Source of the DNA: an uncultured Spirochaetales bacterium
GTDB lineage: Bacteria > Spirochaetota > GWE2-31-10 > CAYYKD01
NCBI GenBank assembly: GCA_964471825.1
Contig: CAYYKD010000003.1
Span: 69,601 to 133,600 of the forward strand
DNA: 64,000 nucleotides
Reading direction: 5' to 3'
The position numbers were made by a program, and so were the translations under genes. Below the pieces are notes generated by a model that was not told where the DNA came from, did no database searches, and was given only the letters and a program-made list of their open reading frames with translations. Shown here piece after piece: positions 28,200 to 58,355 of the stretch (the stretch's first letter is position 1; every line of letters begins with the position of its first letter).

Positions 28200-28281
28200 G
28201 GGGGACAACTTATGCCTGTCTAATTTTGTGAGAAATATCAATTGACATATACAATTATCATCAAACATAGGCTGTCCCTCC
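28200..28281. repeat. REP-like element, inverted pair (full copy gggggacaacttatgcctgtcta in reverse orientation; partner cataggctgtccctcc), ~45-nt spacer
   Basis: The reverse complement of the left copy is TAGACAGGCATAAGTTGTCCCCC, matching the family consensus seen at four other loci. Confidence 0.6.
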
Positions 28282-28350
28282 TTATCATAAGCCGACAAAA
28301 AACAGAAATCGTTTCTCATGGGTTATGGTTTTAAGATGAAAAAGTTTTCT

Positions 28351-28379
28351 TTGACATTTTTCTTTCTCTGTAGTATAAA
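28351..28379 (+). promoter_or_regulatory. Sigma-70-like promoter upstream of the glycosyltransferase gene
   Basis: TTGACA (28351-56), 17-nt spacer, TATAAA (28374-79), ~48 nt before the ATG at 28427. Confidence 0.5.
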
Positions 28380-28426
28380 TTGGTATATATAGATTATCAA
28401 ATTAAAAATTAAAATTTGGGGTAAAA

Positions 28427-29245
28427 ATGCTGATTCTACAGTCTGTCGGCGGTCTTTGTAATAGAATAAGAGCAATAGACACAATGCTCTCATTATCAAG
28501 AAAAATAGATACTAAGCTTGTAGTTTATTGGGATAGAAATGATGAATTAAATGCATCTTTTACCGCTCTATTTGATTTTAGAAATCAATTTGTCTTAAAG
28601 GAAACTAAGTACCATTCTAAAAACCATCCGTCTACAAAAATAAAAAATCTTATTGCACGAATAAAGTTATATAGATTTTTTAAATTTTTAGGGTATAGCG
28701 GGGTTTACTATGTGGATGACATTGTTAAAATGAAAGAACAGGGGTTCGATTTTACATCATTAGATAGAGACAAAAATTATTACTTTTATTTCTATGCTAA
28801 GATCATAGAGAATCCAACTCCATATCAGGAGTTTACACCGCAGCCCTATATAATGAAGATCATTGATCAGGTTACGGCCGGGTTCACACCTCATACTATC
28901 GGAGTTCATATTAGAAGAACTGACAATACACATTCTATTAAGAATAGCCCTGTACAGCTCTTTGTTGACAGAATGGCAAAAGAGTTGGAGCTTAATCCTC
29001 TAACGAATTTTTATCTTGCAACAGATGATCCGGAGACTGAGCAATTTGTAGAGTCAAATTTTCCCGGTAAAATTATGAAGTACAGTAAGGAACTATCAAG
29101 AAGTAGTGAGACCGGCATTAGAGATGCAGTAGTTGATCTCTGGGCATTATCACGAACAAAAAAGATACTTGGGTCATTCTACAGTTCTTTTAGTCATACT
29201 GCAGCTGAAATTGGAGGAATTCCGGAAATTACCATTAAAGAGTGA
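28427..29245 (+). CDS. Glycosyltransferase of the fucosyltransferase superfamily (GT11/GT23/NodZ-like)
   Basis: N-terminal GGLCNRIRAI (cf. GGLGNQMF). HxRRxD motif (GVHIRRTDN). C-terminal ILGSFYSSFSHTAAEIGG resembling the GT11 C-terminal motif. Confidence 0.5.
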   Translation: MLILQSVGGLCNRIRAIDTMLSLSRKIDTKLVVYWDRNDELNASFTALFDFRNQFVLKETKYHSKNHPSTKIKNLIARIKLYRFFKFLGYSGVYYVDDIVKMKEQGFDFTSLDRDKNYYFYFYAKIIENPTPYQEFTPQPYIMKIIDQVTAGFTPHTIGVHIRRTDNTHSIKNSPVQLFVDRMAKELELNPLTNFYLATDDPETEQFVESNFPGKIMKYSKELSRSSETGIRDAVVDLWALSRTKKILGSFYSSFSHTAAEIGGIPEITIKE

Positions 29246-29349
29246 GGTCTTTTTATTATTTGTTGTATTTTTACAATACACAAAGTTGATATTGTTAAAT
29301 TGCTGAGGTGAATTTGCCGAAGATATAGTTTAAACATTTATGAGGGTCT

Positions 29350-31188
29350 ATGGATGATAGCGAGAATACAGTGGGCATAGAAATAATTAACGCAATAAAT
29401 GACATAAAAAATTCAAATATCCCGCAAGAGGTTCTGGAACTGTTAGATAATATATCTCTGGAACTGATTGGTCTCTATACTGAGAATGGTAGTCGAAAGG
29501 ATAAGATTGTTGCAAGTAACACAAAACGCGTGATTACTGAGTATATGATTCAGCACTTAAACGAGATCGAACGGGAAATAATTAATAATACTAAAACAAA
29601 GACTAAAATTTATCAAAAAATTAATAGTCTTATAACACACTATTTTTCTACTAACTATTTTCGTAAAATCTATATTGTAACGATGGTTGATGATTTTATA
29701 GAATCCATCTTTGGTGATGAATTGACACTCTCAAAGTATATATTTGATAAATATTCAAAAAAAATGGTCGGGCATGAATATGATGAGATGGTAAAATATA
29801 TCGCAATCTATGGACAGGTTATTGATAATTCTGATGTTCATGACCTGAAGATCGGCTATAGAAAGGCAATTGTTGAAGAGGCTCATTCAAATGATATAAT
29901 TACGGATGTCTGGGTTAAACTAAAGGAGATTGCCGGAAAGCCTGTCTGCGATAAGCTGTATAATAACCTTTCAACATTCAATTTTGATAAATTGAATCAC
30001 AATAAGAAGTTTCTTAAACCGGTTATAGAAAAAATATTATTGGGAAAGGAGATGATTACAGATGAGTTTTGCAGAGTAAGGCAGGCAGGAATAGAATATT
30101 ACGGTGCACCGATCAGCACGCTTGGGGCAGCAAATATTTATGATTTTGAAGCATTTCATAAAAAGATTCGAGAAAAAGGGTATTTTGACGAGGCAAACAT
30201 TCTATCCGCATATATTCAGAATAATATTCTCCTGTTTACTGACGATGTTATAGATCTTAAATTTTGTGGTCTGGATGAATCACTGCTTATGGAATTAAAA
30301 AACCTTAACAGCAGAAAATATAGAAACATATGTCTTGGATTTATTATTCTATCAGAGCCGACTGAACAGATATTTGAAGCAGATGGTTCGCTTAATTTTA
30401 TTGTTAACAATCTGTTAAAATCTATCTACAAAATGAGTGAGGTGGTTTTGATAGGTGATTTTGAATTTCAGGAATTTCAGAAGGAAATTCTCGTAACTCT
30501 ACAACAGATATCGAGATTACGGGATATTGAGACTAGTGCCCATCAGGAAAGGGTTACAATATATACTAAGGTGCTTGCAGAGGCCCTCCTGGCCAAAAAG
30601 GAGTCGGGTGAGTTAACAAAACTTGTTTTGGCAAGCGGTCTTTCGGAGTCAACGGATTATAATATTGTTGATAAAGAGTATGTTAGAGATCTTGTATATA
30701 GTGCTTCGCTACATGATCTGGGTAAGGTGGGCATTTCGGATGATGTTCTGAAAAAACCTGACAGATTAACGCATGACGAGTATGTCTATATGCAATCCCA
30801 CGCGGATCTTGGTTTTCAGAAGTTGAACAGTGTGACTAGAATGTCTAAGAATAAGACATTTCTCGTGCTTGCGGCGGCTCTTGCCGGTAATCATCATGAA
30901 AAGTGGAATGGTCATGGCTACCCTCTAGGCAAGAAGGGTTATGAGATCCCTTTATCTGCCAGGATTCTCGCGATTGCAGATGTCTACGATGCACTTAGAG
31001 TGAGACGGCCATATAAGAAGCCGTTTACCCATGTTGATGCTGTAAAAGTGATCCTGCATGAAAAGGGAAGACATTTTGATCCTGTCCTTGTCGATATTTT
31101 TTATGAGTACAATAAAAGTTTTGATGAATCATTTAAATCTGTGCAGGAAAACAACATTGTTGTAACGAAATCATACGATAGTGATTAA
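29350..31188 (+). CDS. HD-GYP domain phosphodiesterase (c-di-GMP) with ~380-aa uncharacterised N-terminal domain
   Basis: HD (SLHDLGKVG) and HHEKWNGHGYP (HD-GYP signature) in the C-terminal third. Confidence 0.7.
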   Translation: MDDSENTVGIEIINAINDIKNSNIPQEVLELLDNISLELIGLYTENGSRKDKIVASNTKRVITEYMIQHLNEIEREIINNTKTKTKIYQKINSLITHYFSTNYFRKIYIVTMVDDFIESIFGDELTLSKYIFDKYSKKMVGHEYDEMVKYIAIYGQVIDNSDVHDLKIGYRKAIVEEAHSNDIITDVWVKLKEIAGKPVCDKLYNNLSTFNFDKLNHNKKFLKPVIEKILLGKEMITDEFCRVRQAGIEYYGAPISTLGAANIYDFEAFHKKIREKGYFDEANILSAYIQNNILLFTDDVIDLKFCGLDESLLMELKNLNSRKYRNICLGFIILSEPTEQIFEADGSLNFIVNNLLKSIYKMSEVVLIGDFEFQEFQKEILVTLQQISRLRDIETSAHQERVTIYTKVLAEALLAKKESGELTKLVLASGLSESTDYNIVDKEYVRDLVYSASLHDLGKVGISDDVLKKPDRLTHDEYVYMQSHADLGFQKLNSVTRMSKNKTFLVLAAALAGNHHEKWNGHGYPLGKKGYEIPLSARILAIADVYDALRVRRPYKKPFTHVDAVKVILHEKGRHFDPVLVDIFYEYNKSFDESFKSVQENNIVVTKSYDSD

Positions 31189-31215
31189 TAGATTAATCGC
31201 AATGCAGGTGTTGTT

Positions 31216-34200
31216 ATGAAACAAGGGCAAGGTGTAACTTCATTTTTGAAAATTTTCTCTATTGTTGTTATTGCTCTGATAATATTTATGGCTATACTTA
31301 TTTTTATTGCCGCAAAGAATATCACACCGATTGCACGAAGGTTAATTAATAGAGAGCTGCACTATCAAAGGGCATCATTTAATCCGGCATCACTTGAAAT
31401 ATCTCTGGATAATTTAACGCTTGGGATAGATATTGACAATACTTTTTTTTCTGTTTCAAAAATCACTGCAAGGCTATCTATTCGAGACATTGTTAGAGGC
31501 AAACTGAGATTCTCATCAATTGCTGCAGAGTCCCCTGTGTTGAAAGTGTACAGAACAGTCGATGGTAAATTTGTCTTTCCCGACTTCATTTCACCGGAAA
31601 AAATTAAAGGATCAACGCAATTCAATATTATTTCAGGGAGTTCCTTTGAGAATATCAAGGTGAGTAATGGTCGAGTAGTCTCAGATAATGGTCTGGTAAT
31701 ACTTGACGAACTTGTTATCTCAATACCCGGTTTTAGACCCGACAATATTAAGGTTGAGCCTGTCATATCAGGGAAACTATACAATAATGTGTTTAGGATA
31801 TCTGGAAACTCTGAGGTTAAACAGGATTTAATTATCAACACATTTGCAGCTGATTTGAGTAAATTTAAGTTGCTTGACATCTATAATCTATTTAACTTTA
31901 GTCTGCCCTATACTATCAGCTCAGGAGAGCTATCCGGAACAATATATTTTAAACACATTTCAAAGAAAGGCAGGGTCAATTGGAGCGTAGGTGGAACAAT
32001 CTCACTTCGCAATCTCTCTATTGTAGAAGGTGTAGAGCGGTCGCGATTTTTGAAAAATATAGAAGGTGAATTAAAGGGTTTCAATTATAATGGAACGGAC
32101 AACCTATTTTCTGCTGAAATGATTAATGTACGCAAAGGTGAGTGGCATCATCAAATTAAAATACCAAATAAGACTGTTAAATCTCTGAAATCACAGGAGC
32201 CTTTTTTCTATAAGATTGAAATGCTTGCACTCTCAAATATTGATCTGAGGTATATTGACGAGCTTACAGACTTTAGCGAAACACTTCGGGTTGAATCATT
32301 GAAAATTAGTTCACTGTCAAATATTCGATCAGGGTTGTCAGATGTGATTTTGAAAATAAGGGGCAATAGGTTTGATGAGCTAGTACTTAACGGCCAGATC
32401 AATCAGGCTGATGGTGTATATATATTAAATAGCGGCACTCTTAGGAAACTCACTCTTGACGGTTATAGGCCACTTCTTAAGCGAATTACAACTGTTAGAG
32501 GGGGACTTATAGATATTAATAAGCTCAGTGGCTCCTTGGATAGAAATGGTTTTCAGTTTAATACAGAGGTTGATCTTAGGTCGCTTGTTATACCGGGAAA
32601 GAACACAGAGATATATATAGACAGACTATGGTGTCAAATTGAGAGAGAGCGTGATGGTTCATTAATTGCCGGGCAGGTGATTGTTTCTGAGCTTGATCCG
32701 GCAATTCCAAACATAAGGAATATTAGTTTCAGTATTAATGGTAAGCCGGAAGGCTATAGAATGGGAGTGGTAAAAAAGAGATCCGGTCTAATTGGTAGTG
32801 TTGATGAAAAGCAGATGCAGAGCTACATTATGGACGATTTTCTTACAGTTACCAATATCAAGATATCTGCTCTCCATGATGGGAGATCACTTAGTATTGA
32901 GTCAGACTCCATTGACATGAATGTAAAGGCTACTATTGATTCAGAACCAACGCTTCAATTTGCAGGGAGTGCCGAGATGTCTATTAATGGTCTGCTTCTA
33001 AGAGCTGACCAACGGATAGGACTAAAGATCGACAGGGCAAAACTAACTATTAAAAAAATAAACTTCTTTCCAATGGATATCTTTATTTCGGAGGGAACGA
33101 TAAATAGTCCTCTAATATCCGCAGGGGTAAAGGCTGACAATTCGTTTGAACTGTTCTCATTTCTAGAGCCATTTAAGAAATCAAAGCCTGCATCGAATAT
33201 CACAGAAATAAGAAGCATGGATAATAAGTTCACAATAAACAAACTAAATATTGCTGATGGGACTATAGTCTTTAATGATAGAACGACCGCTCCTAACTTT
33301 TTAGCCACGGTAGATAAGATAGAGGGTGTTATTCAGGACTTTCCCTCGGTAACACAAAGCACGGGCAGATATCTGCTTTCAGGAAAATATGACGGACTAA
33401 CTGATGTCTATCTGGATGGAACAATAAATCCATCAGGACACAAACTGAAGATATCCTGTTCTGATTTAAAATTGCCCGGTCTATCATCATATTTTATCAG
33501 ATATCTCGGAAATGAGGTAATCTCCGGATCATCAAATATTAACATGGATGTCCGGATCGATAATAAGGGGTTTTCTGTAGACAATAGTATAGAGTTGTAC
33601 TCTGTATCGGCTAAAAAAATAAACGGAAATATCAATCTTGAGAGGCTTCTGAGAATTATCGAGGATAGCTCAGGAGTGATTAAGCTGAATATTCCAATCA
33701 AGAGTATAGATGGCGATATAAAAGTTGATTATAGGAAAAACTTTTTTGATCTATTTATGCAGTCCATTGATAAGCCTGTGGCTGGTGTATCCGGTGTGGT
33801 TGGCTTTATTCCCGATAATATATATGATATTATACTCTTTAAGGATGGAATGTCGGAAATTCAATCTATTGACGGAGTGTTTAGTGATAAAATAGTGTCA
33901 TCATTTAATGTAAAATCAAAATACTTCCTTATTGAGAGTTTTGTTGATCAGAAAACTGATAGGGATGAAATTAGAAATAGTAAATTTATGCGTGTCTATG
34001 ATCTCTACTCAATACAGGCTAAGGATCAGAGGCCGGCATTAATTGAAGTCTATAGACATTTTGATATGGTTTTTAATTATGATTATTTAAGTGACAATGA
34101 GTTCAAGAAATCAATAATTGAAAACATTAAACTTGACTATTCGGATTACACAAACCTTTCTCAGAAAAGATCAGAGGAGATTGCCAAGGTGATAACCAGC

Positions 34201-34320
34201 ATCTATGGAGTAGATGAGAAGAGGATTATTATTAGAATTCCTAAAGAAGTCAATAATAATAATCTTGTTGAGGGGTATTCAAATAATCTGGGTGTAGTAA
34301 GGTCAGGAGAAAAAAAATAG
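31216..34320 (+). CDS. Large envelope protein of the DUF748 / AsmA-TamB-like family with N-terminal TM anchor and possible C-terminal OmpA-like segment
   Basis: N-terminal TM helix. Long predicted beta-rich repeat region. 1034 aa. C-terminal ...LSQKRSEEIAKVITSIYGVDEKRIIIRIPKE is weakly OmpA-like. Confidence 0.4.
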   Translation: MKQGQGVTSFLKIFSIVVIALIIFMAILIFIAAKNITPIARRLINRELHYQRASFNPASLEISLDNLTLGIDIDNTFFSVSKITARLSIRDIVRGKLRFSSIAAESPVLKVYRTVDGKFVFPDFISPEKIKGSTQFNIISGSSFENIKVSNGRVVSDNGLVILDELVISIPGFRPDNIKVEPVISGKLYNNVFRISGNSEVKQDLIINTFAADLSKFKLLDIYNLFNFSLPYTISSGELSGTIYFKHISKKGRVNWSVGGTISLRNLSIVEGVERSRFLKNIEGELKGFNYNGTDNLFSAEMINVRKGEWHHQIKIPNKTVKSLKSQEPFFYKIEMLALSNIDLRYIDELTDFSETLRVESLKISSLSNIRSGLSDVILKIRGNRFDELVLNGQINQADGVYILNSGTLRKLTLDGYRPLLKRITTVRGGLIDINKLSGSLDRNGFQFNTEVDLRSLVIPGKNTEIYIDRLWCQIERERDGSLIAGQVIVSELDPAIPNIRNISFSINGKPEGYRMGVVKKRSGLIGSVDEKQMQSYIMDDFLTVTNIKISALHDGRSLSIESDSIDMNVKATIDSEPTLQFAGSAEMSINGLLLRADQRIGLKIDRAKLTIKKINFFPMDIFISEGTINSPLISAGVKADNSFELFSFLEPFKKSKPASNITEIRSMDNKFTINKLNIADGTIVFNDRTTAPNFLATVDKIEGVIQDFPSVTQSTGRYLLSGKYDGLTDVYLDGTINPSGHKLKISCSDLKLPGLSSYFIRYLGNEVISGSSNINMDVRIDNKGFSVDNSIELYSVSAKKINGNINLERLLRIIEDSSGVIKLNIPIKSIDGDIKVDYRKNFFDLFMQSIDKPVAGVSGVVGFIPDNIYDIILFKDGMSEIQSIDGVFSDKIVSSFNVKSKYFLIESFVDQKTDRDEIRNSKFMRVYDLYSIQAKDQRPALIEVYRHFDMVFNYDYLSDNEFKKSIIENIKLDYSDYTNLSQKRSEEIAKVITSIYGVDEKRIIIRIPKEVNNNNLVEGYSNNLGVVRSGEKK

Positions 34321-34342: not shown

Positions 34343-34626
34343 AGTTTAAAAAAAAGTTTCGTTTTTGTTTGTTACTTCTTAGTTTGTAAGAATCTTTGTA
34401 ATAAATTGTTATTACTATTTATTATTACTACTATGATAGTAAATATAACACAGCCGGTTTGAAAAGTCAATATATTTTAGAAAAAAAATTTTTGTTTTTT
34501 CAGATGTTCGGAGTGTACCGGAATTGTGTATTGTTTATTCTTTGAAATGTGCATAGAAATGTGCATAATTTGACGGAAAGAATTTAGATGTATTCTGTGC
34601 TATGTTTTGATAATCTGTACTGATCA

Positions 34627-34641
34627 ACCATAGGTTGTCCC
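34627..34641 (+). repeat. REP-like element, single partial copy (ccataggttgtcccc)
   Basis: Matches the 3' half of the family consensus. Confidence 0.5.
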
Positions 34642-34948
34642 CACTAATCATGTTCCGGCAAAATATGTAACTTAAAAAAACTCTATTTTAAAAAACTTCA
34701 TTTTAAAAAAACTCCTTTGATGTGTAAGTAATATTTAGAGAATCTGGCAGAAGTAATGATTTTTGCCGGATTCTAATTCTAACTGGAGCTTTATGTCAGA
34801 GAATTTGCAGGTGAGAGCGTAATAAGTCAATATATTCCCTTATTATTAGCGTATTAAATAAAAATTTTTATATAATTTATTGAGTTATAATTCAATATTT
34901 GATATATTAGTTTAATTGAAGTATTAAAACATTATAAAGGTAGTACAG

Positions 34949-37099
34949 GTGAAAATAGTACAGGTGAAAATAAAGAAACAAATTCTTTTGCTTATTACAG
35001 TTTTGACAATTTTGACAATCTGTGTAAACATAGCGGCAGATGAATATGATTTACAGAGCAGCTTGTTAAACGGAAGTTCACAGAATAGTACAACTACTAA
35101 TGTGTCATCTGATGAGATGATATACTTTACTGTGGGTAAGCTCCGATACTACAGAACAATAATGCTGGTTGTAGACCCATCAACAGGGGTGATACTTGCA
35201 AGTTCAGGCGGTGCAGTTAGTTTCTATGGCTATAATAAACTTGAGGGGATGAATATCTCCGAAATAAATACTCTTAATCAGTATCAGATAGCTGATGAAA
35301 TGAATAAAGCGGTAAATGAAAAAAGGAATTTTTTTCATTTCAAGCATAGGCTTGCAGATAGACGGATTGTGGATGTTCATGTGAATTCATACCCGATGAT
35401 TTATAAAGATAGACCAGTACTTGTTTCCCGTGTTATGGATGTGTCTGATCAAATTTTTTCTGAATCGACACACTCGGTTATTAAATATATGATGTTTATC
35501 GCATTATTTCTCATAATTATTATCTTAATTGTTTTCATGGTGTATATTAGGAACAATGAAAAAAAATATCGTCTGCTCTTTGAAAACATGGTTGAGGGGT
35601 TTGCACTTCATGAGATAATCTTTGACAAGGAGAATAATCCTGTAGACTATAGATTCATCGATATCAATCCCCGTTTTGAGGAGTTGACCGGTTTAAAACG
35701 GGAGACTGTCCTGGGTAGATCAGTTAAAGAGATGCTTCCTGAAACTGAGACCTATTGGATAGAGAACTACTCAAAAGTTGCCTTGAGCGGAAAGCCGCTC
35801 TCTTTTGAGAACTATTCTCAGGGGCTTAATAAATACTTTAGCTGCAATGCGTTTTCTCCATCAAGGGGGAAGTTTGCTGTAATTTTCTCTGATATTACTG
35901 ATAATAAAATTAAAGAACTTGAGATCATCAAGTCAAGGGATGAAGCACAGAAAGCAAATAAGACCAAGTCCGATTTTCTTGCAAATATGAATCATGAGAT
36001 ACGGACGCCTATTCATAGTATAATCGGTTTTTCAGATGCACTGCTCAAAACAGATCTCAGTTCTAATCAGAGGGATTTTGCAACAAATATAGTGATGGCC
36101 TCCTCTTCATTAATGGGGCTGATAAATGATATATTTGACCTTACCTCAGTAGAAAATGACACACTCATATTACATCCGGATAAAATAAAGATAACTCAAT
36201 TAATTGAGTCTGTTGTTGAATTATTGAGATATAAGGCGGTGGTAAAAGGGTTAAATCTAACATTTTTCAATAATTTACAGGATGATTTTACGATTATGGC
36301 TGACCCCGTGCGATTGAGACAGGTTCTAATCAATCTATTGGCAAATGCAGTTAAGTTTACCGATAATGGCGGTGTATCTATAGAATGTGCTGTTAACATC
36401 CTTGATGAAAAACTGGCGGCATTTACAATATCTGTAACTGATACAGGTGTAGGGATAGATGAGTCACACAGGCCCAGGCTCTATGAGGCCTTCTATCAGA
36501 TAGAGAATGAAAAGTCTAGAAAGCATGGCGGAACAGGGGTCGGGCTGCCGATTTCAGATAGAATTTTGAAGTTAATGGGCAGCAGTCTTGAATATGAAAG
36601 TAAGGTTGGCAGAGGTTCAAGATTCTATTTTACAATTACAACTGAATACTACACAGAGACAGTCAGGGAAAATCGGGATAGAAATAACCTGAAAGAGATT
36701 AGTGCTAATAAGCAGAGTTCATTTGATGGTACTATACTTGTGGTTGAAGATGAGAAGATCAACATGATTCTTATTAAATTTTACATCTCGCATCTCTTAC
36801 CCAATGCACAGATAATAGAGGCCTATAATGGACTTGAGGCAGTCAATCAAGCGAAGGAGTTTCATCCTGAGCTTATTCTTATGGATCTTAGGATGCCTGA
36901 GATGGATGGAATAGCTGCAACAATAAAGATTCGTGAGTTATTTCCGGAGCATCCTCCGATCATTGCAGTAACTGCAGATGTAACCGATGCAGTAAAAGAG
37001 GAGTGTTTTAATGCAGGGATGAATGATTACTACACAAAACCATTAAATGAAGAAGAGATGGGTGAAATAATAAATAAATATCTGTTTAAGACTATCTAA
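34949..37099 (+). CDS. Hybrid sensor histidine kinase (periplasmic sensor, PAS, HisKA, HATPase_c, C-terminal receiver)
   Basis: H-box MNHEIRTPIHSIIGF. G-boxes TDTGVGI / GGTGVGLPIS. Receiver ILVVEDEKINM...LILMDLRMPEMDG. The start region overlaps a 16-bp direct repeat, so an alternative start lies at 34964. Confidence 0.8.
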   Translation: MKIVQVKIKKQILLLITVLTILTICVNIAADEYDLQSSLLNGSSQNSTTTNVSSDEMIYFTVGKLRYYRTIMLVVDPSTGVILASSGGAVSFYGYNKLEGMNISEINTLNQYQIADEMNKAVNEKRNFFHFKHRLADRRIVDVHVNSYPMIYKDRPVLVSRVMDVSDQIFSESTHSVIKYMMFIALFLIIIILIVFMVYIRNNEKKYRLLFENMVEGFALHEIIFDKENNPVDYRFIDINPRFEELTGLKRETVLGRSVKEMLPETETYWIENYSKVALSGKPLSFENYSQGLNKYFSCNAFSPSRGKFAVIFSDITDNKIKELEIIKSRDEAQKANKTKSDFLANMNHEIRTPIHSIIGFSDALLKTDLSSNQRDFATNIVMASSSLMGLINDIFDLTSVENDTLILHPDKIKITQLIESVVELLRYKAVVKGLNLTFFNNLQDDFTIMADPVRLRQVLINLLANAVKFTDNGGVSIECAVNILDEKLAAFTISVTDTGVGIDESHRPRLYEAFYQIENEKSRKHGGTGVGLPISDRILKLMGSSLEYESKVGRGSRFYFTITTEYYTETVRENRDRNNLKEISANKQSSFDGTILVVEDEKINMILIKFYISHLLPNAQIIEAYNGLEAVNQAKEFHPELILMDLRMPEMDGIAATIKIRELFPEHPPIIAVTADVTDAVKEECFNAGMNDYYTKPLNEEEMGEIINKYLFKTI

Positions 37100-38148
37100 T
37101 GTTTGATAAAACATCACAAAAGAGAGTATGTATGATAAAAGAGTTGATAAATGATTTAGTATCTGTTTTTAAACCTGAGATTTACCATGGTTTTTTAAAA
37201 AAAGGCAAGTTTTTTGAAGGTTGGTATTACAAAATAACTGATAGGAGCGGGAAGCGAACAGCAGTGTTTATTCCGGGTATATCTAAATATACGAAAGACA
37301 GGCATTCATTTATTCAGTTTTTTCATACAGAACAGTTAAATAGAGATTATTTTCGGTTTGAGAGTGATAGTTTTAAGTCTGACTATAACCATCTTGGTGT
37401 CACTATAGACAGATCCTCATTCAGTTCGGATTCTATACAGGTAGAGATTGATCAAGGCAAGAAGATATCTGGAGATTTTAAGTTTACCAATCTGATTAGA
37501 TGGCCTGTTCTGTTATTTAGCCCCGGAATTATGGGTTTCTTTGGTGTTCTACCATTTATGGAGTGTTACTATGATCTCATCTCAACAAAGGGAGCTGTAA
37601 CCGGCAAGCTCAAAATTGATGATCAAATAATAGACTTTGATGGCGGCTCTGTCTACATAGAGAAAAACTGGGGTTCATCATTTCCGTCAGAGTGGATTTG
37701 GCTTCAGGCTAACAGGTTTAATACGGAGACTGTGGGTATAACTTTTTCATATGCGACAATTCCATTCCTGGGCACAAGTTTTAAGGGGCTGGTTTGCGGT
37801 CTGTCAATCGGTAAGAAGTTCTATAAGTTTGCAACCTACAATGGCGGCAAGGTCTTAAGTTTAGATATCAGCGATCACTCTGTAAAAGTACTTCTTAGAA
37901 AGGGCAGTCTCTATCTTGAAATTGAAGCTCAAAGGATTGATGGTGCATATTTGCCGTATCCGACCATAACAGGTATGAACGGCACTATCTATGAAAGTAT
38001 AAGCGGTAATATGAAAGCATTGCTATACAGACTTAAGGGCGGATCCAGGCAGGTGATCTTTGAAGGCGTTAGTGATAATTGCGGTGTTGAGATAACCATG
38101 AAAAAAAATAATGGCTTTTCATGGGATAAATTAACTAAGCAGGGTTAG
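37099..38148 (+). CDS. Tocopherol-cyclase-like family protein (PF14249-like), function unknown in bacteria
   Basis: N-terminal YHGFLKKGKFFEGWYYKITD resembles the tocopherol cyclase PHSGYHF...RRFFEGWYF signature. Translationally coupled to the kinase (TAATG). Confidence 0.45.
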   Translation: MFDKTSQKRVCMIKELINDLVSVFKPEIYHGFLKKGKFFEGWYYKITDRSGKRTAVFIPGISKYTKDRHSFIQFFHTEQLNRDYFRFESDSFKSDYNHLGVTIDRSSFSSDSIQVEIDQGKKISGDFKFTNLIRWPVLLFSPGIMGFFGVLPFMECYYDLISTKGAVTGKLKIDDQIIDFDGGSVYIEKNWGSSFPSEWIWLQANRFNTETVGITFSYATIPFLGTSFKGLVCGLSIGKKFYKFATYNGGKVLSLDISDHSVKVLLRKGSLYLEIEAQRIDGAYLPYPTITGMNGTIYESISGNMKALLYRLKGGSRQVIFEGVSDNCGVEITMKKNNGFSWDKLTKQG

Positions 38149-49030: not shown

Positions 49031-49145
49031 AATCTGTCCTTATAATTTGGATTTTTAATATATCACTTAGTTAAAACGATTTTTTTGATTTATTATTTAT
49101 GGAATTGACAAAAGAGTTACAATTTTTTTTTGAAGAATATCAAGC

Positions 49146-49210: not shown

Positions 49211-49389
49211 TACAGATAGTACACAGCCTAGAGTGACAATTCAATTCTTTATCATATTGTAGAGGCTATTGTAGAGAATTAATATTTAGAAATCATATAC
49301 ACAAAACCTTCCACTAAAAATTTATTAAAGACTAATAAAAATATCTTTATAAATTGCATTAATTTAATTTTTTTGTTAAATCTTTCTAT

Positions 49390-51381: not shown

Positions 51382-52907
51382 TAAAAAAAATAATAAGTAA
51401 ATTTAAAAAGCTATCAACGATTCGGTTTGTAAAAGAGTCTCTCTATGGAATTGGAACAGTAGTTTTAATTGTCGCAATAATAGCCTCAATAACAGCATTA
51501 AAAGATAAAAAAAGTCTTATTGTGTTTGAGGATGAACAAAATATTCTGTCATTTTTGAATGATACAGAACGAAAACTTCTAATTGAAGAAAAATCAAAAC
51601 TCGAAAGTGAGTTAAAACTTTTGTATTCTCAAAGATTCAGCCATAGTTCGGCCCTGTCGCAGGAGGAGAAAAAAAGAATATCTGATAAAATTGCGGAAAT
51701 AGAAGAAAAAAAACGACAAAATGAAAGCAGCTATTCAAAAAACAAACAGGAGCTTGACACATTAAAGGCGAAAATGTCAAGTAGTGAAAACCTCCTCAAT
51801 GATATGCAGTTAATAATAAAAAAAACCTCGGATGAACTGGAAAAGGTAAAGAAAGAAAAAGATAATAGTGAGGTTTACTGGAAAAACTATAAGGATTTTT
51901 TAAAAAGCTCTGTAAAAAATGTAGCAGTCTCTACTAACAACGAGTCAAATCTAAATCGTGAGTTCGAAAACAGTGATGGAAAGTTCTTTATCGCCGGCCA
52001 ATTTCAAAAATTGCTTGATATTATCAAACAGTTGAATGAAGATAATAGTAAAAAATCGGCTAGAATTTTAGAACTCGAACAGAGTTTGATTGACGAGTCC
52101 GACTCTAATCGATTGAAGGAATCATCTGTTTCCTCAATAGTATCAATTGAATCACTTCAATCAATCAGAGCGGAAGAATATGAGCAAAATCAGAAGTCTA
52201 TTTCAAAACTTAATGCTGAGATTCTAGATAGAGATGCAGAGATTCTTCGTCTTAAAAATATTATTTTAAAAATAAATACAGAGAAGAGCAACCTTCAGAC
52301 AATACAGGAATCGCATGAAGAAGAGAAGCCCGTTATAGAGATAGATGACAAAGTATTAATACCCGAAAAAAACATTCAGAAAGATATGAATGAATTGGAT
52401 ATTGATTTCTGGAAAGAGAGGAAATACAGTTGGGTTTTTCCGTTGAAGGGCGGTTATGTCGATGATCCAGGTAATATTGAATCAAAATTCGGTTACGAAC
52501 GGCCGGACTCTAATGCATCAAATCCGGGTATATTTATCATTCCAAAGATTGCAAGCGGTGTAAAAGTGCTTTCAATGACTGACGGTGTTATTATAAACTA
52601 TTATTCCTATGTAGGCGGCACCTATGCAATGGAGATTAAGAACGACGATGGAACTATAGCCAGATATTGCTATATCAGCTCTTCGTTAAAGACCGGGACA
52701 AGAGTATCAAAAGCACAGGTTATTGGAATTGTTCTAAATGTAGGCAGTAGATATGGACTCCATATAGAGCTATACCAGGGCACTCTAGGGGGGGCTCTTT
52801 CAAATATAAATAATACTAAGTACAGGTTCGTGGAACCGAAAAACTATATGAGAAGAGGCGACCTTCAAGACCCCTCAGGTATAATGTATTTAAACATTAT
52901 CTATTGA
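51378..52907 (+). CDS. Membrane-anchored coiled-coil protein with C-terminal degenerate LytM/M23 domain (EnvC-like)
   Basis: N-terminal TM. ~300 aa of heptad-rich E/K sequence. C-terminal M23-like fold (GVKVLSMTDGVII...GLHIELYQG) lacking the HxxxD His and the first His of HxH. Start overlaps the cyclase stop (ATGA). Confidence 0.6.
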   Translation: MIKKIISKFKKLSTIRFVKESLYGIGTVVLIVAIIASITALKDKKSLIVFEDEQNILSFLNDTERKLLIEEKSKLESELKLLYSQRFSHSSALSQEEKKRISDKIAEIEEKKRQNESSYSKNKQELDTLKAKMSSSENLLNDMQLIIKKTSDELEKVKKEKDNSEVYWKNYKDFLKSSVKNVAVSTNNESNLNREFENSDGKFFIAGQFQKLLDIIKQLNEDNSKKSARILELEQSLIDESDSNRLKESSVSSIVSIESLQSIRAEEYEQNQKSISKLNAEILDRDAEILRLKNIILKINTEKSNLQTIQESHEEEKPVIEIDDKVLIPEKNIQKDMNELDIDFWKERKYSWVFPLKGGYVDDPGNIESKFGYERPDSNASNPGIFIIPKIASGVKVLSMTDGVIINYYSYVGGTYAMEIKNDDGTIARYCYISSSLKTGTRVSKAQVIGIVLNVGSRYGLHIELYQGTLGGALSNINNTKYRFVEPKNYMRRGDLQDPSGIMYLNIIY

Positions 52908-52964
52908 GCCTCTCGCAAAAATTCAAAATTTATTTTTGAAAGAGGCCTATTGACAGGATGTACT

Positions 52965-53225
52965 ATGCCATTTGTTTACATTGCAAGGTGTTCTGATGAT
53001 ACTCTATATACAGGGACAGCAGTTAATCTTGAGAAACGGATAATGACACACAATGCCGGAAAGGGTGCGAAATATACGAGAGGAAGGATACCTTTAACCG
53101 TTGTTTTTTCAGAGGAGTTTTCAACTCTGGGCGAGGCAATGAAAAGAGAGTCAATCATTAAAAAGATGAGCAGGAATGAAAAGATGCGAATGGCTGAAAT
53201 GCAGGGATCCGGCTTAATTATTTAA
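52965..53225 (+). CDS. GIY-YIG nuclease family protein (YhbQ-like)
   Basis: MPFVYIARCSDDTLYTGTAVNLEKRIMTHN matches the GIY-YIG N-terminus. The ORF track starts at TTG 52950, but the ATG at 52965 gives the canonical N-terminus. Confidence 0.7.
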   Translation: MPFVYIARCSDDTLYTGTAVNLEKRIMTHNAGKGAKYTRGRIPLTVVFSEEFSTLGEAMKRESIIKKMSRNEKMRMAEMQGSGLII

Positions 53226-54476
53226 TTTTTTTTTTGATGATGCGATCTGAGTCTCAATTATTTTCTTTATAGTGTCGGAAGATTCTCCTGTGTTTAACTT
53301 TTTGAAATAGTCCTCGTAGATCACAACTTTATTTCTACCCGATAGCTTTGCGTGATAGAGTGCCTTGTCAGCTCTGCTTAGTAAATCATTAGGGGTGATG
53401 TCCTCAGGATAGAACTCAGATATACCTACACTTATTGTTACTCTAATCTTATCACCGGCAGTATCCTTAATCTCATGGGATTCTATAGCTCTTCTGAGTC
53501 TCTCTGCAGGAATAACAGCATTGCGTGCATTAGTTTCCGGTAATAGAACAAGGAATTCTTCACCGCCATACCGTCCGACAGAGTCAACCTCCCTAAATAT
53601 CCTATGATTCTTTAGTATATCGCCAAATATTCTAAGAACATTATCGCCGACAAGGTGACCATGCAAGTCATTAATGTTCTTAAAAAAATCAATATCGATC
53701 ATTAACACAGAGAATACTCCGTAATGATCAAGAAAATTGCCAACGGATTGGTTATTCCCAAGTAATTCTGAGCATTTATCCGGGTTCTCTTCTTCGATTA
53801 CACTTTTAATACGCCAAAGATCACGCATTGTTCTCTTACTTTCATTCTCAAGTATCTCAACTATTGCTTTTCGATTTAGAATGTTGGTTAGGAAGTCTAT
53901 CTTGCTGATGTTAACGATGTTTTCATATAATTCCTGAATATTTTCTTTTTGCTGCTTAATCAACTCTGTATCAGCAATGTACTTAAATGATTCTACTATA
54001 TAGTTATTGATACGCCCCTCTGTTAGTATTTGACTATAGGCAGACACTAGAAATGAGGTTAGATTTATGATGTATGATATGTCACCTGGATTAGAGGGCA
54101 TAAAAAAAGTAAAATCCCTATCTGATATTATTTTATTAATTGATTGTTCAGACCCCTCTGTAGAGGTAAAGCAGTAAAGTATATGCGGTTTACTAATTTT
54201 ATGATGAGATATAAAATAACTGTGAATTTGATCCTTTCTAACGATGTTTATGAGTTCATGATTTATTGCTATTATTGTATTGCCGGAATATATACTGTCA
54301 TTAAGTTCATTTATAGTTCTTGATAACGATGAAAGATCAGTTAAAACAACTGATATCTCATTGCTATTTACTGCCTTAAAAAACTCACGGTAATTTTCAA
54401 ATAGATCGGTTAGAACGATTAAATATTTTTTCATAGAATAAAAAGTATAATATTTTAAGTATTTTGTAAATACCAT
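53214..54476 (-). CDS. GGDEF-domain diguanylate cyclase with N-terminal receiver-like/unknown domain
   Basis: Active-site GGEEF (RYGGEEFLVLLP) and upstream DxLT-like region. Converges on the GIY-YIG gene and overlaps it by 12 nt. Confidence 0.75.
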   Translation of the reverse strand: MVFTKYLKYYTFYSMKKYLIVLTDLFENYREFFKAVNSNEISVVLTDLSSLSRTINELNDSIYSGNTIIAINHELINIVRKDQIHSYFISHHKISKPHILYCFTSTEGSEQSINKIISDRDFTFFMPSNPGDISYIINLTSFLVSAYSQILTEGRINNYIVESFKYIADTELIKQQKENIQELYENIVNISKIDFLTNILNRKAIVEILENESKRTMRDLWRIKSVIEEENPDKCSELLGNNQSVGNFLDHYGVFSVLMIDIDFFKNINDLHGHLVGDNVLRIFGDILKNHRIFREVDSVGRYGGEEFLVLLPETNARNAVIPAERLRRAIESHEIKDTAGDKIRVTISVGISEFYPEDITPNDLLSRADKALYHAKLSGRNKVVIYEDYFKKLNTGESSDTIKKIIETQIASSKKKLNN

Positions 54477-54510
54477 AAATACAAATTCAAAAAAAAAGAT
54501 TAATAGATGT

Positions 54511-55326
54511 ATGAAAATATCAATAATATTATTACTTACAATTTATTTTTTTAGCTGTTCCGGTCAACACAAAACCCTGGACATAGATCCACCCTCTGTA
54601 GGTTTTGTATTTGCCTCAGGGTACAATTGGGTTATTTCATTTGACGAACCTGTATCGTCTCTCAAGATCGAGTCTGAAAAAGCAGATAAGGTACTTCAAA
54701 TTAACCCGCTCTATCCACAGGCTAATTTTAGTATAGACTCGAGATATTTTCTAAATCACTCTATACCCGTTATCAATGAGAGTGTAAAGCTAAGGTTGAC
54801 ATCAGAGGACACAAGTAGTAATAGTTTAACAGAAGAATTAGTTTTTCCGCCAATCAATCAAAATCCTGCAGATATAAAGATCGTAAAGATAAATACAGTG
54901 AAGAGTGCTAAAAAATCACAATCAATAGTATTAGAAAAAAAACATGGATCACCTGTTGGATTTAAACTGAATCTCTTAAATCATACTTCAAATTGCGGGA
55001 TAGAACTTGAAAGTTATTTAACTGTAAATAAATCCTATGAGTTTAAATCATCCTCAAACTATAATAATTCTGAGATACGACTTACAGCAACATATGGATT
55101 GATATTTATAACAGATAACAATAGTGTAATAACGGATTATTATCTTTACTACGATAGCACAAAGAATGAGATTTCAAAATTGATTATACGAAAAAGATTT
55201 AAGGATTTTATAAGAATCCTACTTGATGGTGGCGTAGAGGAGGAGGAAATTATTATTCATGATATAAATAAAAAAGCGCCCTCTAAAGGACGCCTATTGG
55301 GACAGAAGGGACTCGAACCCTCATAG
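54511..55326 (+). CDS. Hypothetical lipoprotein
   Basis: Signal peptide with lipobox FFSC. The 3' end overlaps tRNA-Leu (opposite strand) by ~29 nt, so the true stop/extent is uncertain. Confidence 0.4.
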   Translation: MKISIILLLTIYFFSCSGQHKTLDIDPPSVGFVFASGYNWVISFDEPVSSLKIESEKADKVLQINPLYPQANFSIDSRYFLNHSIPVINESVKLRLTSEDTSSNSLTEELVFPPINQNPADIKIVKINTVKSAKKSQSIVLEKKHGSPVGFKLNLLNHTSNCGIELESYLTVNKSYEFKSSSNYNNSEIRLTATYGLIFITDNNSVITDYYLYYDSTKNEISKLIIRKRFKDFIRILLDGGVEEEEIIIHDINKKAPSKGRLLGQKGLEPS

Positions 55327-55381
55327 CGTTTCCGCCACAAACACCTCAAGCTTGCGTGTCTACCAATTTCACCACCATCCC
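55298..55381 (-). tRNA. tRNA-Leu (anticodon GAG) with long variable arm
   Basis: Reverse complement folds as acceptor GGGATGG/CTGTCCC (two G·U pairs), D-arm, anticodon stem CAAGC/GTTTG with loop TTGAGGT, long variable arm, T-arm GAGGG-TTCGAGT-CCCTT, and discriminator A. Confidence 0.7.
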
Positions 55382-55508
55382 GTTAAACTAACATATATCA
55401 AAATGGAACCGTTTTGTCAATCTGAATTTCTATGAGATTTACTTAAGTTTTTGCAACTAATAAAACACTCTCATATACCTAGATTATATCTATGTTCATG
55501 TACAAATA

Positions 55509-57170
55509 TTAAACTATAAAGACACCCTGCCAGTCGGCTGGAGGCGGTTTTTTTAAAAACGCATCGCATCGTTGGATCATAACACTTGATGGGCCGTCAC
55601 CATTTAAGAGTGCAGAGGCAAACTCAAAGGAGGATCTGGCCTTGCCCCACTCTCTTCTCTGATATTTAGCAAAACCATCCTCATAGGTCTCGAGCATATC
55701 GAGAATTGCCTGGGAGACCTCGCCGTTTTTACCGACCAGTTCATATATCCTACCGCCTATAGTTTTACCTTTGACCTGAACTGTATCTATTAATCTGGTA
55801 ACAAATTTACTCCTGATGATAGAGTTAGTTGATTCACTGATGAGTATTCTGGTAGAATATATCTTGTTAAGTGACTCGAGCCTTGAAGACAGGTTCACAT
55901 TGTCTCCTAGTGTTGTATAGTTGAATCTTTCACTATAACCTATGTTACCAACAAAAACCTCACCGGTATTAATTCCAAATCGTGTAACAAATTCAGGATA
56001 ACCTTTTGGCATTATAAGTTTATTGAAATCCTCTTCAAAATGTTTGCAACTTAGAGCTGCATTTGCTGCAAGCTCAGCGTGGTTCTTCATTGTGATAGGA
56101 GCGTTCCAGAAAGCCATAACAGCATCACCGATATATTTGTCAACTGTTCCGTTATTGTCAATAATAGCTCTGGTAATACCCTCAAAATATCTTGACATTA
56201 CTGAGACAAGTTTTTCCGGCAATAGGCTCTCTGAAAGTGTTGTAAAATTTTGAATATCTGAAAACATAATTGTCAGCTCTTTCTTTTCTCCACCAAGGAT
56301 CGCCTCTTTATTATGATCAATCATACTTTTTACGATATCTGACGGGACATATTTAATAAATGATTTAAGACTGGTTTTCATATTTGACAATGCACTTTCT
56401 ACGCTCTCAATCTCTTTGAAAACAGATTTGTTATTTGAGCGATTTAACAATTTCAAGGACTTTATATTGTCAATATCAGCCTCAATGATCTTAAGTGGTG
56501 CGGATATACGAATTGAAAGATACATAGCCACAAGTATCGAAATTAATGAAACAAGACCTGAGATCAGAACAATGGAGAATAGTAGTCTGTTTTCGGTTGC
56601 AATAACATCGGAGGCGGAGATATCAGCTCCAACTACACCGGCAAACTCTCCCGAACTCGTAAATATTGGGGCATAACCTGATATCCAGGTTCCCCATTTA
56701 TCTGTTGAAAAACTATTCTCAATTATAACATTTTTTTTATTTTTAAAAACCTCTAAGAGTTCAGGTGTTGCATCACTATAGACATCTCCGGGGTGTGCAG
56801 CACTATCTATGTCGTTGTCAGAATCAAGAACAAAGTATATTTCATCTTTAAGATTGATATTCATTGTATAGAGGAATTTAATATCTCTTGTTTTCTCTTG
56901 GGCCTTGACTAAAATACTTCTCAACTTCTTATACTCGGATGAGGTCGTCCATGATGAATCTTTTATTCTACTATGCAGGTCACCGTCAATTAATAATGAT
57001 GCAGTGGCCACCGCATTGTATATCTGTTTTGCAAGTTCCTGCCTCAATGATTTTTTTACGCTTATATATGAGGAAGTGCTTAACGCAATAGAGGTTATTA
57101 ATATTAGTACAATAAAACATGACGAAATCCCTAAATTTATCGATAGAGTACCCAATTTCTTATTATTCAT
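55509..57170 (-). CDS. Membrane-anchored class III adenylate/guanylate cyclase with periplasmic Cache-like sensor, HAMP-like linker and conserved C-terminal tail
   Basis: TM, ~170-aa periplasmic domain, TM. Cyclase motifs LTIMFSDIQNFTTLSE...YIGDAVMAFW...LGDNVNLSSR. C-terminal ...PPADWQGVFIV. Confidence 0.8.
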   Translation of the reverse strand: MNNKKLGTLSINLGISSCFIVLILITSIALSTSSYISVKKSLRQELAKQIYNAVATASLLIDGDLHSRIKDSSWTTSSEYKKLRSILVKAQEKTRDIKFLYTMNINLKDEIYFVLDSDNDIDSAAHPGDVYSDATPELLEVFKNKKNVIIENSFSTDKWGTWISGYAPIFTSSGEFAGVVGADISASDVIATENRLLFSIVLISGLVSLISILVAMYLSIRISAPLKIIEADIDNIKSLKLLNRSNNKSVFKEIESVESALSNMKTSLKSFIKYVPSDIVKSMIDHNKEAILGGEKKELTIMFSDIQNFTTLSESLLPEKLVSVMSRYFEGITRAIIDNNGTVDKYIGDAVMAFWNAPITMKNHAELAANAALSCKHFEEDFNKLIMPKGYPEFVTRFGINTGEVFVGNIGYSERFNYTTLGDNVNLSSRLESLNKIYSTRILISESTNSIIRSKFVTRLIDTVQVKGKTIGGRIYELVGKNGEVSQAILDMLETYEDGFAKYQRREWGKARSSFEFASALLNGDGPSSVMIQRCDAFLKKPPPADWQGVFIV

Positions 57171-57201
57171 AATAAATCCTAGAATATAGCGAATATAGTC
57201 A

Positions 57202-57612
57202 TCAATCTATGTATTGAAGAATCTTGTCTTTGTAAATTTCCGCGAAAACTCTATCTGCATAGCAGAGATCAAGTTTTAGAAATTCTGAATAACTTACAAA
57301 TTTCCCCTCGGTATGATCAACCAGTTTGATAGAGTTAGTATCACATTCTACCAGAAAGAATATAACGCCCAGAACAAAGCTGTTCGAATCAACCTCTACA
57401 CTTCCGACCTCTTCGATGACAGTTACTGTTATACCCAGTTCCTCTCTGCACTCTCTAAGAAGTGCTTCATCATACTTTTCTCCGGGGTTCAATTTTCCAC
57501 CCGGAAGTTCCCACTTTTCTGCGTCTATAGATTTTTTATTTCTCTTTACAGTATATAATTTCCTATTTTTTACGATAAAAGCAGCCGAAACCTCAACCAA
57601 ATCAAAGTTCAT
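57202..57612 (-). CDS. NUDIX hydrolase (MutT-like)
   Basis: Nudix box GGKLNPGEKYDEALLRECREELGI. Confidence 0.75.
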   Translation of the reverse strand: MNFDLVEVSAAFIVKNRKLYTVKRNKKSIDAEKWELPGGKLNPGEKYDEALLRECREELGITVTVIEEVGSVEVDSNSFVLGVIFFLVECDTNSIKLVDHTEGKFVSYSEFLKLDLCYADRVFAEIYKDKILQYID

Positions 57613-57821
57613 TTAATACCTCGGTAAATTTATTAGAGATAGATTAGATATCTAATTGAATATAATTTTAATCTACAACATAGTTTGAAAAAAATCAACA
57701 TAAATAATAAGTCTGATAGAAATTCGGTTGTAGAAATAATTGCAAGTAAAATAGTTTATAATACACAGGCATCTGTATCGATCTGCTGTTTAACCTCTTC
57801 CTCCCTATCCATATCGGAAAA

Positions 57822-58085
57822 TTACTTTACGATCGGAACATCTTTCTCACTCAGCAAATAGTACTCATAATTCGGTATGTATTTTGCAGGAATGTTTTGT
57901 TCTATCAGATCCTTGATATTTGTAGGAATGTTCCAGTCATCGTTACCGTTGTAAAGAATTATCGGAAAAATATTTGGGAGCTGTCCCTTTTGAGAATTCC
58001 TGTATATCAAATCATAAAGACTCATAATATACAAAAATAGTCTAATAGGTATCGACTTGTCTGGTTTAGATTGAAATTCAAGCAA
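57822..58085 (-). pseudogene. Truncated Rpn-family (PD-(D/E)XK) transposase-like gene fragment, paralogous to the full gene at 9908-10795
   Basis: MLEFQSKPDKSIPIRLF...PIILYNGNDDWNIPTNIKDL parallels FILVEHKSYLPD...PIVFYHGTEKWDIPSEF of the full-length copy. An in-frame TGA lies immediately upstream with no ATG, and the fragment lacks the ~65-aa N-terminus and ~140-aa C-terminus. Confidence 0.55.
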
Positions 58086-58292
58086 AATGTATGTAATTAT
58101 TTCTTTATTATCAATATTTATTTTTCATAACAATGTAAGTATGATCGAATTTTATTTAAAAATCAACTCTTAATATCAAAACGGATTGTTGTATTCTACA
58201 AAACATTTATAAATTGTGAATGGGTATCAATTTTGCTGAGCTTTTTTGCTCTATCGGGAAAAATGCTTTATTTTTCTAAATAATGTTTCGAA

Positions 58293-58355
58293 GGACAACC
58301 TAAGGTCGTTGACAATGTCACATCACACATGACTAGACAGGCATAGGTTGTCCCC
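58293..58355. repeat. REP-like element, inverted pair (ggacaacctaagg ... gactagacaggcataggttgtcccc)
   Basis: The right arm is identical to the 49186-49210 copy except for one nt. The left arm is reverse-complementary over ~10 nt. Confidence 0.65.

Follow-up and report, generated by a model that had tools for sequence, protein, structure and literature searches.

Dispersed inverted repeats in an uncultured Spirochaetales bacterium are paired with a conserved RAYT-family gene that lacks the catalytic motifs

INTRODUCTION

What are the short repeats that lie scattered between the genes of a Spirochaetales contig, and what placed them there? We analyzed a 64,000-nucleotide stretch of DNA from an uncultured Spirochaetales bacterium (contig CAYYKD010000003.1, positions 69,601 to 133,600), hereafter called the window, in which the motif TAGGTTGTCCC marks five intergenic loci within 30 kb: three full elements, one solo arm, and one tandem pair. 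The original prediction regarded these loci as repetitive extragenic palindrome (REP) or bacterial interspersed mosaic element (BIME) repeats, offered a small miniature inverted-repeat transposable element (MITE) as an alternative, and held that no gene call explains them. This last statement proved to be wrong. An overlooked open reading frame (ORF) on the minus strand, 48551-49030, encodes a protein of the REP-associated tyrosine transposase (RAYT) family and lies 112 nt from one of the full elements.

REPIN-RAYT systems are usually viewed as replicators that persist over long periods and depend on an active transposase present in one copy. The RAYT-family protein of the locus described here has lost both catalytic motifs. 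We favor the reading that the repeats are a low-copy, decaying family of the REPIN or terminal inverted repeat (TIR) type, whose cognate RAYT is disabled yet retained in a non-catalytic role, and we assign this reading a probability of roughly 55%. The repeats themselves are ordinary; what deserves further attention is the conserved RAYT without catalytic motifs, together with the element retained beside it.

RESULTS

A RAYT-family gene is paired with a full repeat element

The element that adjoins the gene, which we call win49, spans 49143-49212 on the minus strand (GGGGACAACCTATGCCAGTCTAGTC...CTATCAACGGCAATAGGTTGTCCCG), with an A arm at 49186-49212 and a B arm at 49143-49170. When placed in a common orientation, full elements read GGGGACAACCTATG-CCTGTCTAGTC…GTGAAAT…CTATCAAC-nn-CATAGGTTGTCCCC, measure 63-66 nt between their outer ends, and carry 14-nt inverted ends (GGGGACAACCTATG / CATAGGTTGTCCCC). 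The elements are polar because the two arms, which are alike over the 14-nt inverted end, differ further in. A covariance model, R1, was built from nine element copies and separates the two strands of the 69-70-nt window copies clearly (~74 bits versus 17-26); win49 itself scores 74.6 bits on the minus strand and 26.3 on the plus strand. In 10 of 12 elements, a gap of 41 nt separates the two 11-mers, which puts their centers 52 bp apart; the exceptions are win49 (42 nt) and a second window element, win28 (55 nt).

The 159-amino-acid product of the adjoining gene (P0001) matches the Pfam family Y1_Tnp (1.5e-7) and the NCBIfam model NF047646, REP-associated tyrosine transposase (REP_Tyr_transpos), at 9.6e-14 and 51.5 bits, which is below the curated cutoff of 80. 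This model was nevertheless the best NCBIfam match for all 34 of 34 aligned homologs, ahead of the IS200 model, whose score on P0001 is far lower. When distant homologs were added, AlphaFold (AF2) gave a model of P0001 with a predicted local distance difference test (pLDDT) score of 89.8, for the core fold only. The best solved structure found for this model with Foldseek was 4ER8_A, the Escherichia coli TnpAREP bound to a REP hairpin (E 2.3e-9, TMq 0.79), compared to a template modeling (TM) score of 0.56 for the IS608 and ISDra2 TnpA proteins. Likewise, the family profile that includes distant homologs matches 4ER8 at E 9.6e-11. The 14-sequence family alignment alone yielded a pLDDT of 58 in AF2 and only noise in a PDB search, and the distant homologs cured both problems. 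The modeled protein shows the TnpAREP fold. Its close family is small, comprising 14 clusters among 5.8 billion proteins, with four representatives at E < 1e-30 among 1.84 billion proteins, a search that gave 5,853 homologs in all.

The proximity of gene and element recurs in related genomes. In seven of eight genomic contexts (the window and the related loci L001, L003, L015, L248, L249, and L250), the ATG is preceded at 102-112 nt by a full element co-oriented with the gene, whereas the eighth, L005, has a half-site only. The gene neighborhoods differ in all eight. Because the pairing recurs in seven of the eight related genomes, and because a RAYT-family gene lies this close to win49, we are highly confident that the repeats belong with gene 48551-49030. 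In the window, the 112 nt that separate the element from the ATG (49031-49142, minus strand) hold the block TTGTAA..TGTCAATTCCATAAATAAT. L001, L003, and L248 keep this block, and L249, L250, and L015 have more diverged versions of it. By eye the block looks promoter-like, and it may serve as the promoter of the gene, but a scan with a consensus promoter model made no call there.

The conserved unit is larger in some relatives. At L250 (9750-9900) and at L015, L020, L023, and L115, which belong to the metagenome-assembled genome (MAG) CAZSQU01, conservation reaches ~80 nt further left (…AATTTTTGGCAAATA..CAAAAGAGT.AGATAGAGATTTGT.TTATTAATTCAGTTGGAGAATCAGC), with unrelated DNA beyond. All four of the CAZSQU01 contigs end inside the element-gene unit, and the family includes truncated or internally deleted paralogs (P0011-P0014). 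These observations suggest that the L250/CAZSQU subclade carries multiple copies of the element-plus-gene unit.

The catalytic residues are lost while the gene is under selection

An HUH motif and a catalytic tyrosine have been described as conserved in all RAYT groups. The consensus of the distant homologs (25-33% identity) bears both motifs (IMxNHxH…FxYIxxNPV), and the same profile aligns the motif columns to EHMH and DYIYINPVK of 4ER8. In all members of the window's family, however, D-E-F-Q replaces HUH, such that the two histidine columns hold E and Q, and the tyrosine column holds K, I, or L (K in P0001). P0001 has a single histidine in the whole protein, and Tyr117, which is close to the tyrosine column, is Phe in most orthologs. 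HUH/Y1 cleavage would be unavailable to P0001 because both motifs are gone, and, judging from its sequence, the protein is very probably incapable of acting as an HUH nuclease.

The disabled gene has nonetheless been maintained. At least 10 lineages carry it intact, and pairwise ratios of nonsynonymous to synonymous substitution (dN/dS) range from 0.06 to 0.23 with saturated dS, which indicates purifying selection and therefore a functional protein. The loss also extends beyond this family. Of the 161 sequences compared, which comprise the 14 family members and the 147 nearest cluster representatives, both motifs are present in 96 and both are missing in 31. About 35-40% of the nearest RAYT-like cluster representatives (P0015-P0161) are without HUH, the catalytic tyrosine, or both, and a good number of them are full-length proteins. 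Catalytic loss appears to be recurrent in this branch of RAYTs. Motif-less TnpAY1 proteins were previously set aside as presumably non-functional (Quentin et al. 2018, PMC6006769).

The remaining copies in the window

All five intergenic loci listed in the original prediction are present. In the window, the 12-mer TAGGTTGTCCCC gives seven matches with at most one mismatch against 0.14 expected, a count that none of 100 shuffles attained, and the 25-mer gives three matches with at most three mismatches against none expected. With the 11-mer TAGGTTGTCCC and at most one mismatch there are 10 matches, nine of which fall in the ~9% of the window without long ORFs; the tenth (32096-32106, TAGGTTGTCCG) lies within ORF 31216-34320 and is probably due to chance. 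The predicted arrangement was also borne out: three inverted pairs (28199-28281, 49143-49212, and 58289-58357), one direct pair (38121-38198), and one singleton (34620-34642). The inverted 11-mers are located at 28202-28212/28268-28278, 49146-49156/49199-49209, and 58292-58302/58344-58354, with gaps of 55, 42, and 41 nt, respectively. The 25-mer copies at 49186-49210 and 58331-58355 differ at a single base, in agreement with the near-identity noted earlier.

The three full elements are 69-83 nt long and share the 14-nt inverted ends and the polar interior. Win58 (58289-58357, minus strand) has its A arm at 58331-58357 and a degenerate B arm at 58289-58315 (…GGTTGTCCTT); its R1 scores are 74.0 bits on the minus strand and 16.7 on the plus strand. 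Win28 (28199-28281, plus strand) is located between the divergent rnfC gene (26601-27947, minus strand) and ORF 28427-29245 (plus strand). Its interior is 14 nt longer, its arms contain two uncompensated mismatches, and it scores 68.8 bits on the plus strand and 24.8 on the minus strand.

The two other loci carry isolated arms. A solo B-type arm (CTGATCAACCATAGGTTGTCCCC) occupies 34620-34642 on the plus strand and precedes the histidine-kinase ORF at 34949 by 307 nt. It contains an exact 12-mer, with the motif at 34631-34642, and the B-arm signature ATCAAC..ATAGG, and neither an 11-mer scan nor R1 found a partner arm for it. The locus at 38121-38198 (plus strand) is a tandem duplication with two solo arms (…ATCAACTAAGCAGGGATAGGTTGTCCCTA), for which Tandem Repeats Finder reports a period of 38, 2.1 copies, and an 87% match. 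Motif matches begin at 38146 and 38184, and the R1 score is only 10.1 bits. This duplication occupies the interval between two convergent ORFs, 37099-38148 and 38194-39528, and the reported overlap with a stop codon was confirmed, as its first copy contains the TAG of ORF 37099-38148.

Copy number and divergence of the repeat population

The sequence read covers ~69 kb of the source genome and ~100 kb from genomes with the gene. Three full copies occur away from the gene in ~166 kb of DNA from gene-carrying genomes (win28, win58, and L003b), or ~1 per ~55 kb, which extrapolates to tens of copies per genome, a rough and possibly biased figure. R1 found no full copies in ~300 kb beyond those already found by motif search. 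Among the window copies, interiors are 66-74% identical, and the window contains no identical full-copy pairs or master copies. Win28, win58, and L003b lie upstream of co-oriented ORFs, at distances of 143, 203, and 108 nt, respectively; with three copies, this upstream placement is only suggestive.

No element copy is present in 39 kb (L242 and L245) of the closest relative, whose proteins are 74-78% identical. Upstream of its rnfC gene, win28 is absent and the rnfC promoter block is conserved, a presence/absence difference as expected of an inserted element. The aminotransferase locus near win58 gave no information on an orthologous site, as synteny is broken there. A 16-mer scan of the GTDB genome collection returned, among the matches listed, mostly single chance matches, many of them in Micromonospora, and several matches in one genome only, the Spirochaetales MAG CAZSQU01. 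In the literature, the motif strings turned up only in unrelated primers.

A separate scan of metagenomes for GGGACAACCTA-N38-45-TAGGTTGTCCC returned more than 120 loci (L122-L241; e.g., L126:290-456 and L133:516-576) that at first seemed to be a huge related family. These loci are very abundant, near-perfect palindromes of ~200 nt with the consensus arm …TGAGAACTGCGCTCTTCTGGGTTATTACGCAGCGAGTAGTGGTAATTTCTTACCGACGTTTCGGGACAACCTATCGGTCCCATCTTCAAGG, and one arm is often extended by a conserved ~35 nt (GCGTGATTTCAGGCTTCCGCCGCGAAGTAGA). They were discarded as unrelated, having in common with the window element only 12 nt (GGGACAACCTAT), a coincidence that is plausible where palindromes are perfect. 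Long-ORF coverage in these loci is 12%, compared to 91% in the window, and for this reason we regard the palindromes as non-prokaryotic MITEs, presumably of a eukaryotic host or protist in gut-type metagenomes.

Genomic neighborhood

Several further features lie near the repeats. The 272-amino-acid product of ORF 28427-29245 (plus strand), directly downstream of win28, has no Pfam or NCBIfam match, and the same is true of an 81-amino-acid hydrophobic ORF (L003:15472-15717, plus strand) directly downstream of the element in L003 that is not adjacent to the gene. The ORF at 57822-58085 (minus strand; 87 amino acids), which is co-oriented with win58 and 203 nt downstream of it, is annotated by JGI as PF04754 Transposase_31 (Rpn/PD-(D/E)XK family) and is clearly a fragment. 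On the other side of win58, a 17-bp near-perfect hairpin (58386-58424, minus strand; ATCAAATCGTTGCATAGTC…GACTATGCAACGATTTGAT) with a T-rich tail comes immediately after the aminotransferase gene and looks like its terminator. This hairpin is the sole terminator-like call of the region and is separate from win58 and from the repeat family.

A 12-nt tandem repeat (48417-48450; TTAAATACACCA, 2.8 copies, 95% match) lies at the 3' end of ORF 47562-48455, which is convergent on the RAYT-like gene. The region 49390-62367 is unusually dense in signaling genes, with three class III adenylate/guanylate cyclase genes (49390-51381, 55509-57170, and 60118-62367) and a GGDEF gene (53214-54476). Hybrid histidine kinases are encoded elsewhere in the window (10982-14275 and 34949-37099). 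A near-identical JGI metagenome contig (3300020048 Ga0207193_1001023) matches 48521-64000 at 99.7%. For the housekeeping genes of the window, the closest named homologs belong to Spirochaetes/Spirochaetota MAGs.

DISCUSSION

A proposed history of the repeats and their gene

We propose that the elements were dispersed by a RAYT ancestor that was still active, through single-strand cut-and-paste of the HUH/Y1 type, a route for which a lack of target-site duplications is expected. Catalysis would have been lost prior to the divergence of these species, because all orthologs share the loss. The dispersed copies would now be decaying relics, some reduced to solo arms, others with mismatched arms, and none identical to another, whereas the protein and the promoter-proximal element would have been retained together. 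Between species that are saturated at synonymous sites, the arms do not vary and keep a fixed spacing, which argues for continuing sequence-specific recognition. Most plausibly, it is the retained protein that recognizes them. The protein could bind both arms of the copy that immediately precedes the promoter of its gene and thereby regulate its own expression, and it may also act at those few further copies that precede co-oriented genes. This assignment of a present role, as putative DNA binding or autoregulation, is tentative.

Several observations weigh against this reading. No convincing copy, and no arm at up to six errors, was found in the 300 nt downstream of the gene, which makes the repeat one-sided, unlike those of classical REPtrons. 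The GT[AG]G tag is absent from the hairpin foot, which is instead GGGG/CCCC, and the three bases 5' of this foot are variable (TAG, ATG, GTG, TTG, ACG, GCG, and others). None of 17 stem pairs shows a compensatory change, nine pairs are invariant, and the mismatches are uncompensated. Because the stem pairs do not covary, what is conserved is the sequence, and the pairing itself is unproven. An intact RAYT could exist elsewhere in the source genome. Finally, elements of the same genome are slightly more alike than those of different genomes. Together with the ~80-nt extension, the contig breaks, and the truncated paralogs described above, this clustering hints at copying after catalytic loss, and a dead enzyme cannot explain such copying.

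Alternative explanations

A stronger version of our proposal holds that the RAYT has been fully domesticated as a non-catalytic, sequence-specific DNA-binding protein, and that the former REPIN arms, 52 bp or about five helical turns apart, are operators for its own promoter and for a handful of genes. We consider this version unlikely, less so than the rivals that follow. If it is true, a bacterial transposase and its non-autonomous elements have been rewired into a regulatory circuit. Roughly a third of the nearest RAYT-like cluster representatives are likewise devoid of catalytic residues, which suggests that such a transition may be recurrent.

One rival holds that a live REPIN population is mobilized in trans by an intact RAYT or another nuclease encoded elsewhere, with the disabled homolog as a competitor, a regulator, or passive cargo of a larger unit. 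The interiors of CAZSQU copies are 77-83% identical to one another and 51-71% identical to those of other genomes, a modest clustering by genome. The longer unit in L250/CAZSQU and the four contigs that end in it are what a multi-copy unit would produce, and the damaged paralogs and the different gene neighborhood in each of the eight genomes also fit. However, the contig breaks could reflect strain mixtures in a co-assembled MAG, and no homolog with intact HUH and tyrosine motifs was found in ~300 kb of the window and related loci. The window copies are diverged with no identical pair, and the closest relative has none in 39 kb. On balance, mobilization in trans is improbable.

A different possibility is that the repeats never moved and are the ordinary operators of a regulon, in which the 11-mer arms are transcription-factor sites that arose by selection at each promoter and the RAYT-like gene is one autoregulated member. 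Full copies 102-203 nt upstream of co-oriented ORFs, invariant arms at a fixed 52 bp (~five helical turns), and stem changes that are never compensated would all suit such sites. In contrast, independent origin does not account for homologous, polar interiors at different loci and in different genomes (GCCTGTCTAGTC…GTGAAAT…CTATCAAC; R1 scores of ~74 versus ~17-26 bits), and these features indicate descent from one element. Solo arms between convergent genes (38121-38198), the missing win28 at the orthologous promoter of the nearest relative, and a half-site spacer of 41 nt, which is unusual for a simple operator, are also difficult to reconcile with this explanation, which we therefore judge to be quite unlikely.

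Selection for secondary structure, with the elements acting as terminators or as hairpins that stabilize mRNA, is a still poorer candidate. Paired loci do fold better than shuffled sequences as single-stranded DNA, clearly for win49 (49140-49215, z = -4.3), moderately for win58 (58286-58360, z = -2.5), and weakly for win28 (28195-28285, z = -1.7), the latter two because of mismatches in their arms; the elements of related genomes give z values of -3.9 to -8.0. But the stems show no compensatory changes, no Rfam family matches the elements, they have no T-run, and a terminator scan makes no call at them. The aminotransferase gene is served by its own terminator-like hairpin, and the elements precede both genes and the conserved block that resembles a promoter. 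A role as RNA structures is thus very improbable.

The MITE alternative, in which the repeats derive from a DDE-type insertion sequence with the terminal inverted repeats GGGGACAACCTATG and the neighboring Y1-like gene is incidental, draws on the inverted ends, small size, and intergenic location of the elements, but it is scarcely credible given that there are no target-site duplications (a mean best boundary direct repeat of 1.67 nt versus 1.63 nt for random flanks, and none of ≥4 nt, in 12 elements), that the Y1-like gene is adjacent in seven of eight genomes at a fixed distance and orientation, and that no DDE transposase bearing such ends was seen.

Implications

A decaying REPIN/TIR-type family with a disabled but retained RAYT thus remains our preferred reading. 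It offers a test case for roles of the RAYT fold that do not involve cutting: a motif-less homolog that is under selection across species with its cognate element at a fixed upstream distance. If the elements act as operators, the unmatched ORFs downstream of them in the window and in L003 are candidate members of the regulon. Should the regulatory reading prove wrong, the locus would still cleanly illustrate a REPIN population in decay. The repeats also extend the REPIN/TIR type to an uncultured lineage of Spirochaetota.

Comparison with known systems

The closest counterparts are the REPIN-RAYT systems, or REPtrons, such as the E. coli TnpAREP with its REP/BIME elements and the Group 2 and 3 RAYTs of Pseudomonas with their REPINs. 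These systems also have short, intergenic, hairpin-capable inverted doublets along with solo units, and a copy adjoins the RAYT-family gene. The best-matching models for the protein, REP_Tyr_transpos and 4ER8, come from this group, and target duplications are lacking in both cases. The differences are equally evident. Canonical REPs carry a 5' GT[AG]G at the foot of the hairpin (Quentin et al. 2018, PMC6006769), which is missing here; subclass 2.6 and class 3 REPs likewise lack the tag. Copy density is low, the repeat is confined to one side of the gene, the protein does not reach the NF047646 cutoff and has neither HUH nor the catalytic tyrosine, and the host belongs to the phylum Spirochaetota. 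Moreover, canonical REP/BIME elements are placed in 3' regions, whereas the full copies here are upstream of co-oriented ORFs. The REP/BIME assignment in the original prediction therefore named the right family, as the pairing with a RAYT-family gene attests, but it did not hold for the tag, for the low copy number and divergence, for the 3' location, or for a cognate RAYT with its two catalytic motifs.

TIRYT genes and their TIRtrons (Di Nocera et al. 2013, PMC3733652; subclass 2.1 of Quentin et al. 2018, PMC6006769) are similar in that RAYT-like genes are accompanied by inverted repeats other than GTAG REPs. Some of the repeats associated with TIRYTs form moderately abundant families arranged as dimers (PMC3733652; PMC6006769), and the TIRYT motif GGGGWSAS matches GGGGACAA of our elements at seven of eight positions. 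Unlike the present case, in which both arms are upstream, the TIRs of these systems are found on both sides of the gene, and subclass 2.1 proteins have a C-terminal helix-turn-helix and the HUH and tyrosine motifs, whereas the 159-amino-acid protein has neither.

REPINs are known to decay once RAYT function is lost (bioRxiv 10.1101/2021.07.10.451892). The frameshifted RAYT of Neisseria gonorrhoeae described in that study resembles our locus in combining a disabled RAYT with a small, diverged repeat population without master copies. There, the RAYT is a pseudogene; here, the gene is intact and under purifying selection, and the adjacent element is conserved. The IS200/IS605 TnpA proteins (IS608 and ISDra2) share the Y1/HUH fold superfamily and recognize hairpin DNA at element ends, but the structural match to them is weaker (TM 0.56) and the IS200 NCBIfam score far lower. 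In addition, our gene has no left-end and right-end hairpins around it, and its product lacks the catalytic residues. Although it has neither the GTAG tag nor the catalytic motifs of canonical members, the locus works like, and descends from, the REPIN-RAYT/TIRYT world.

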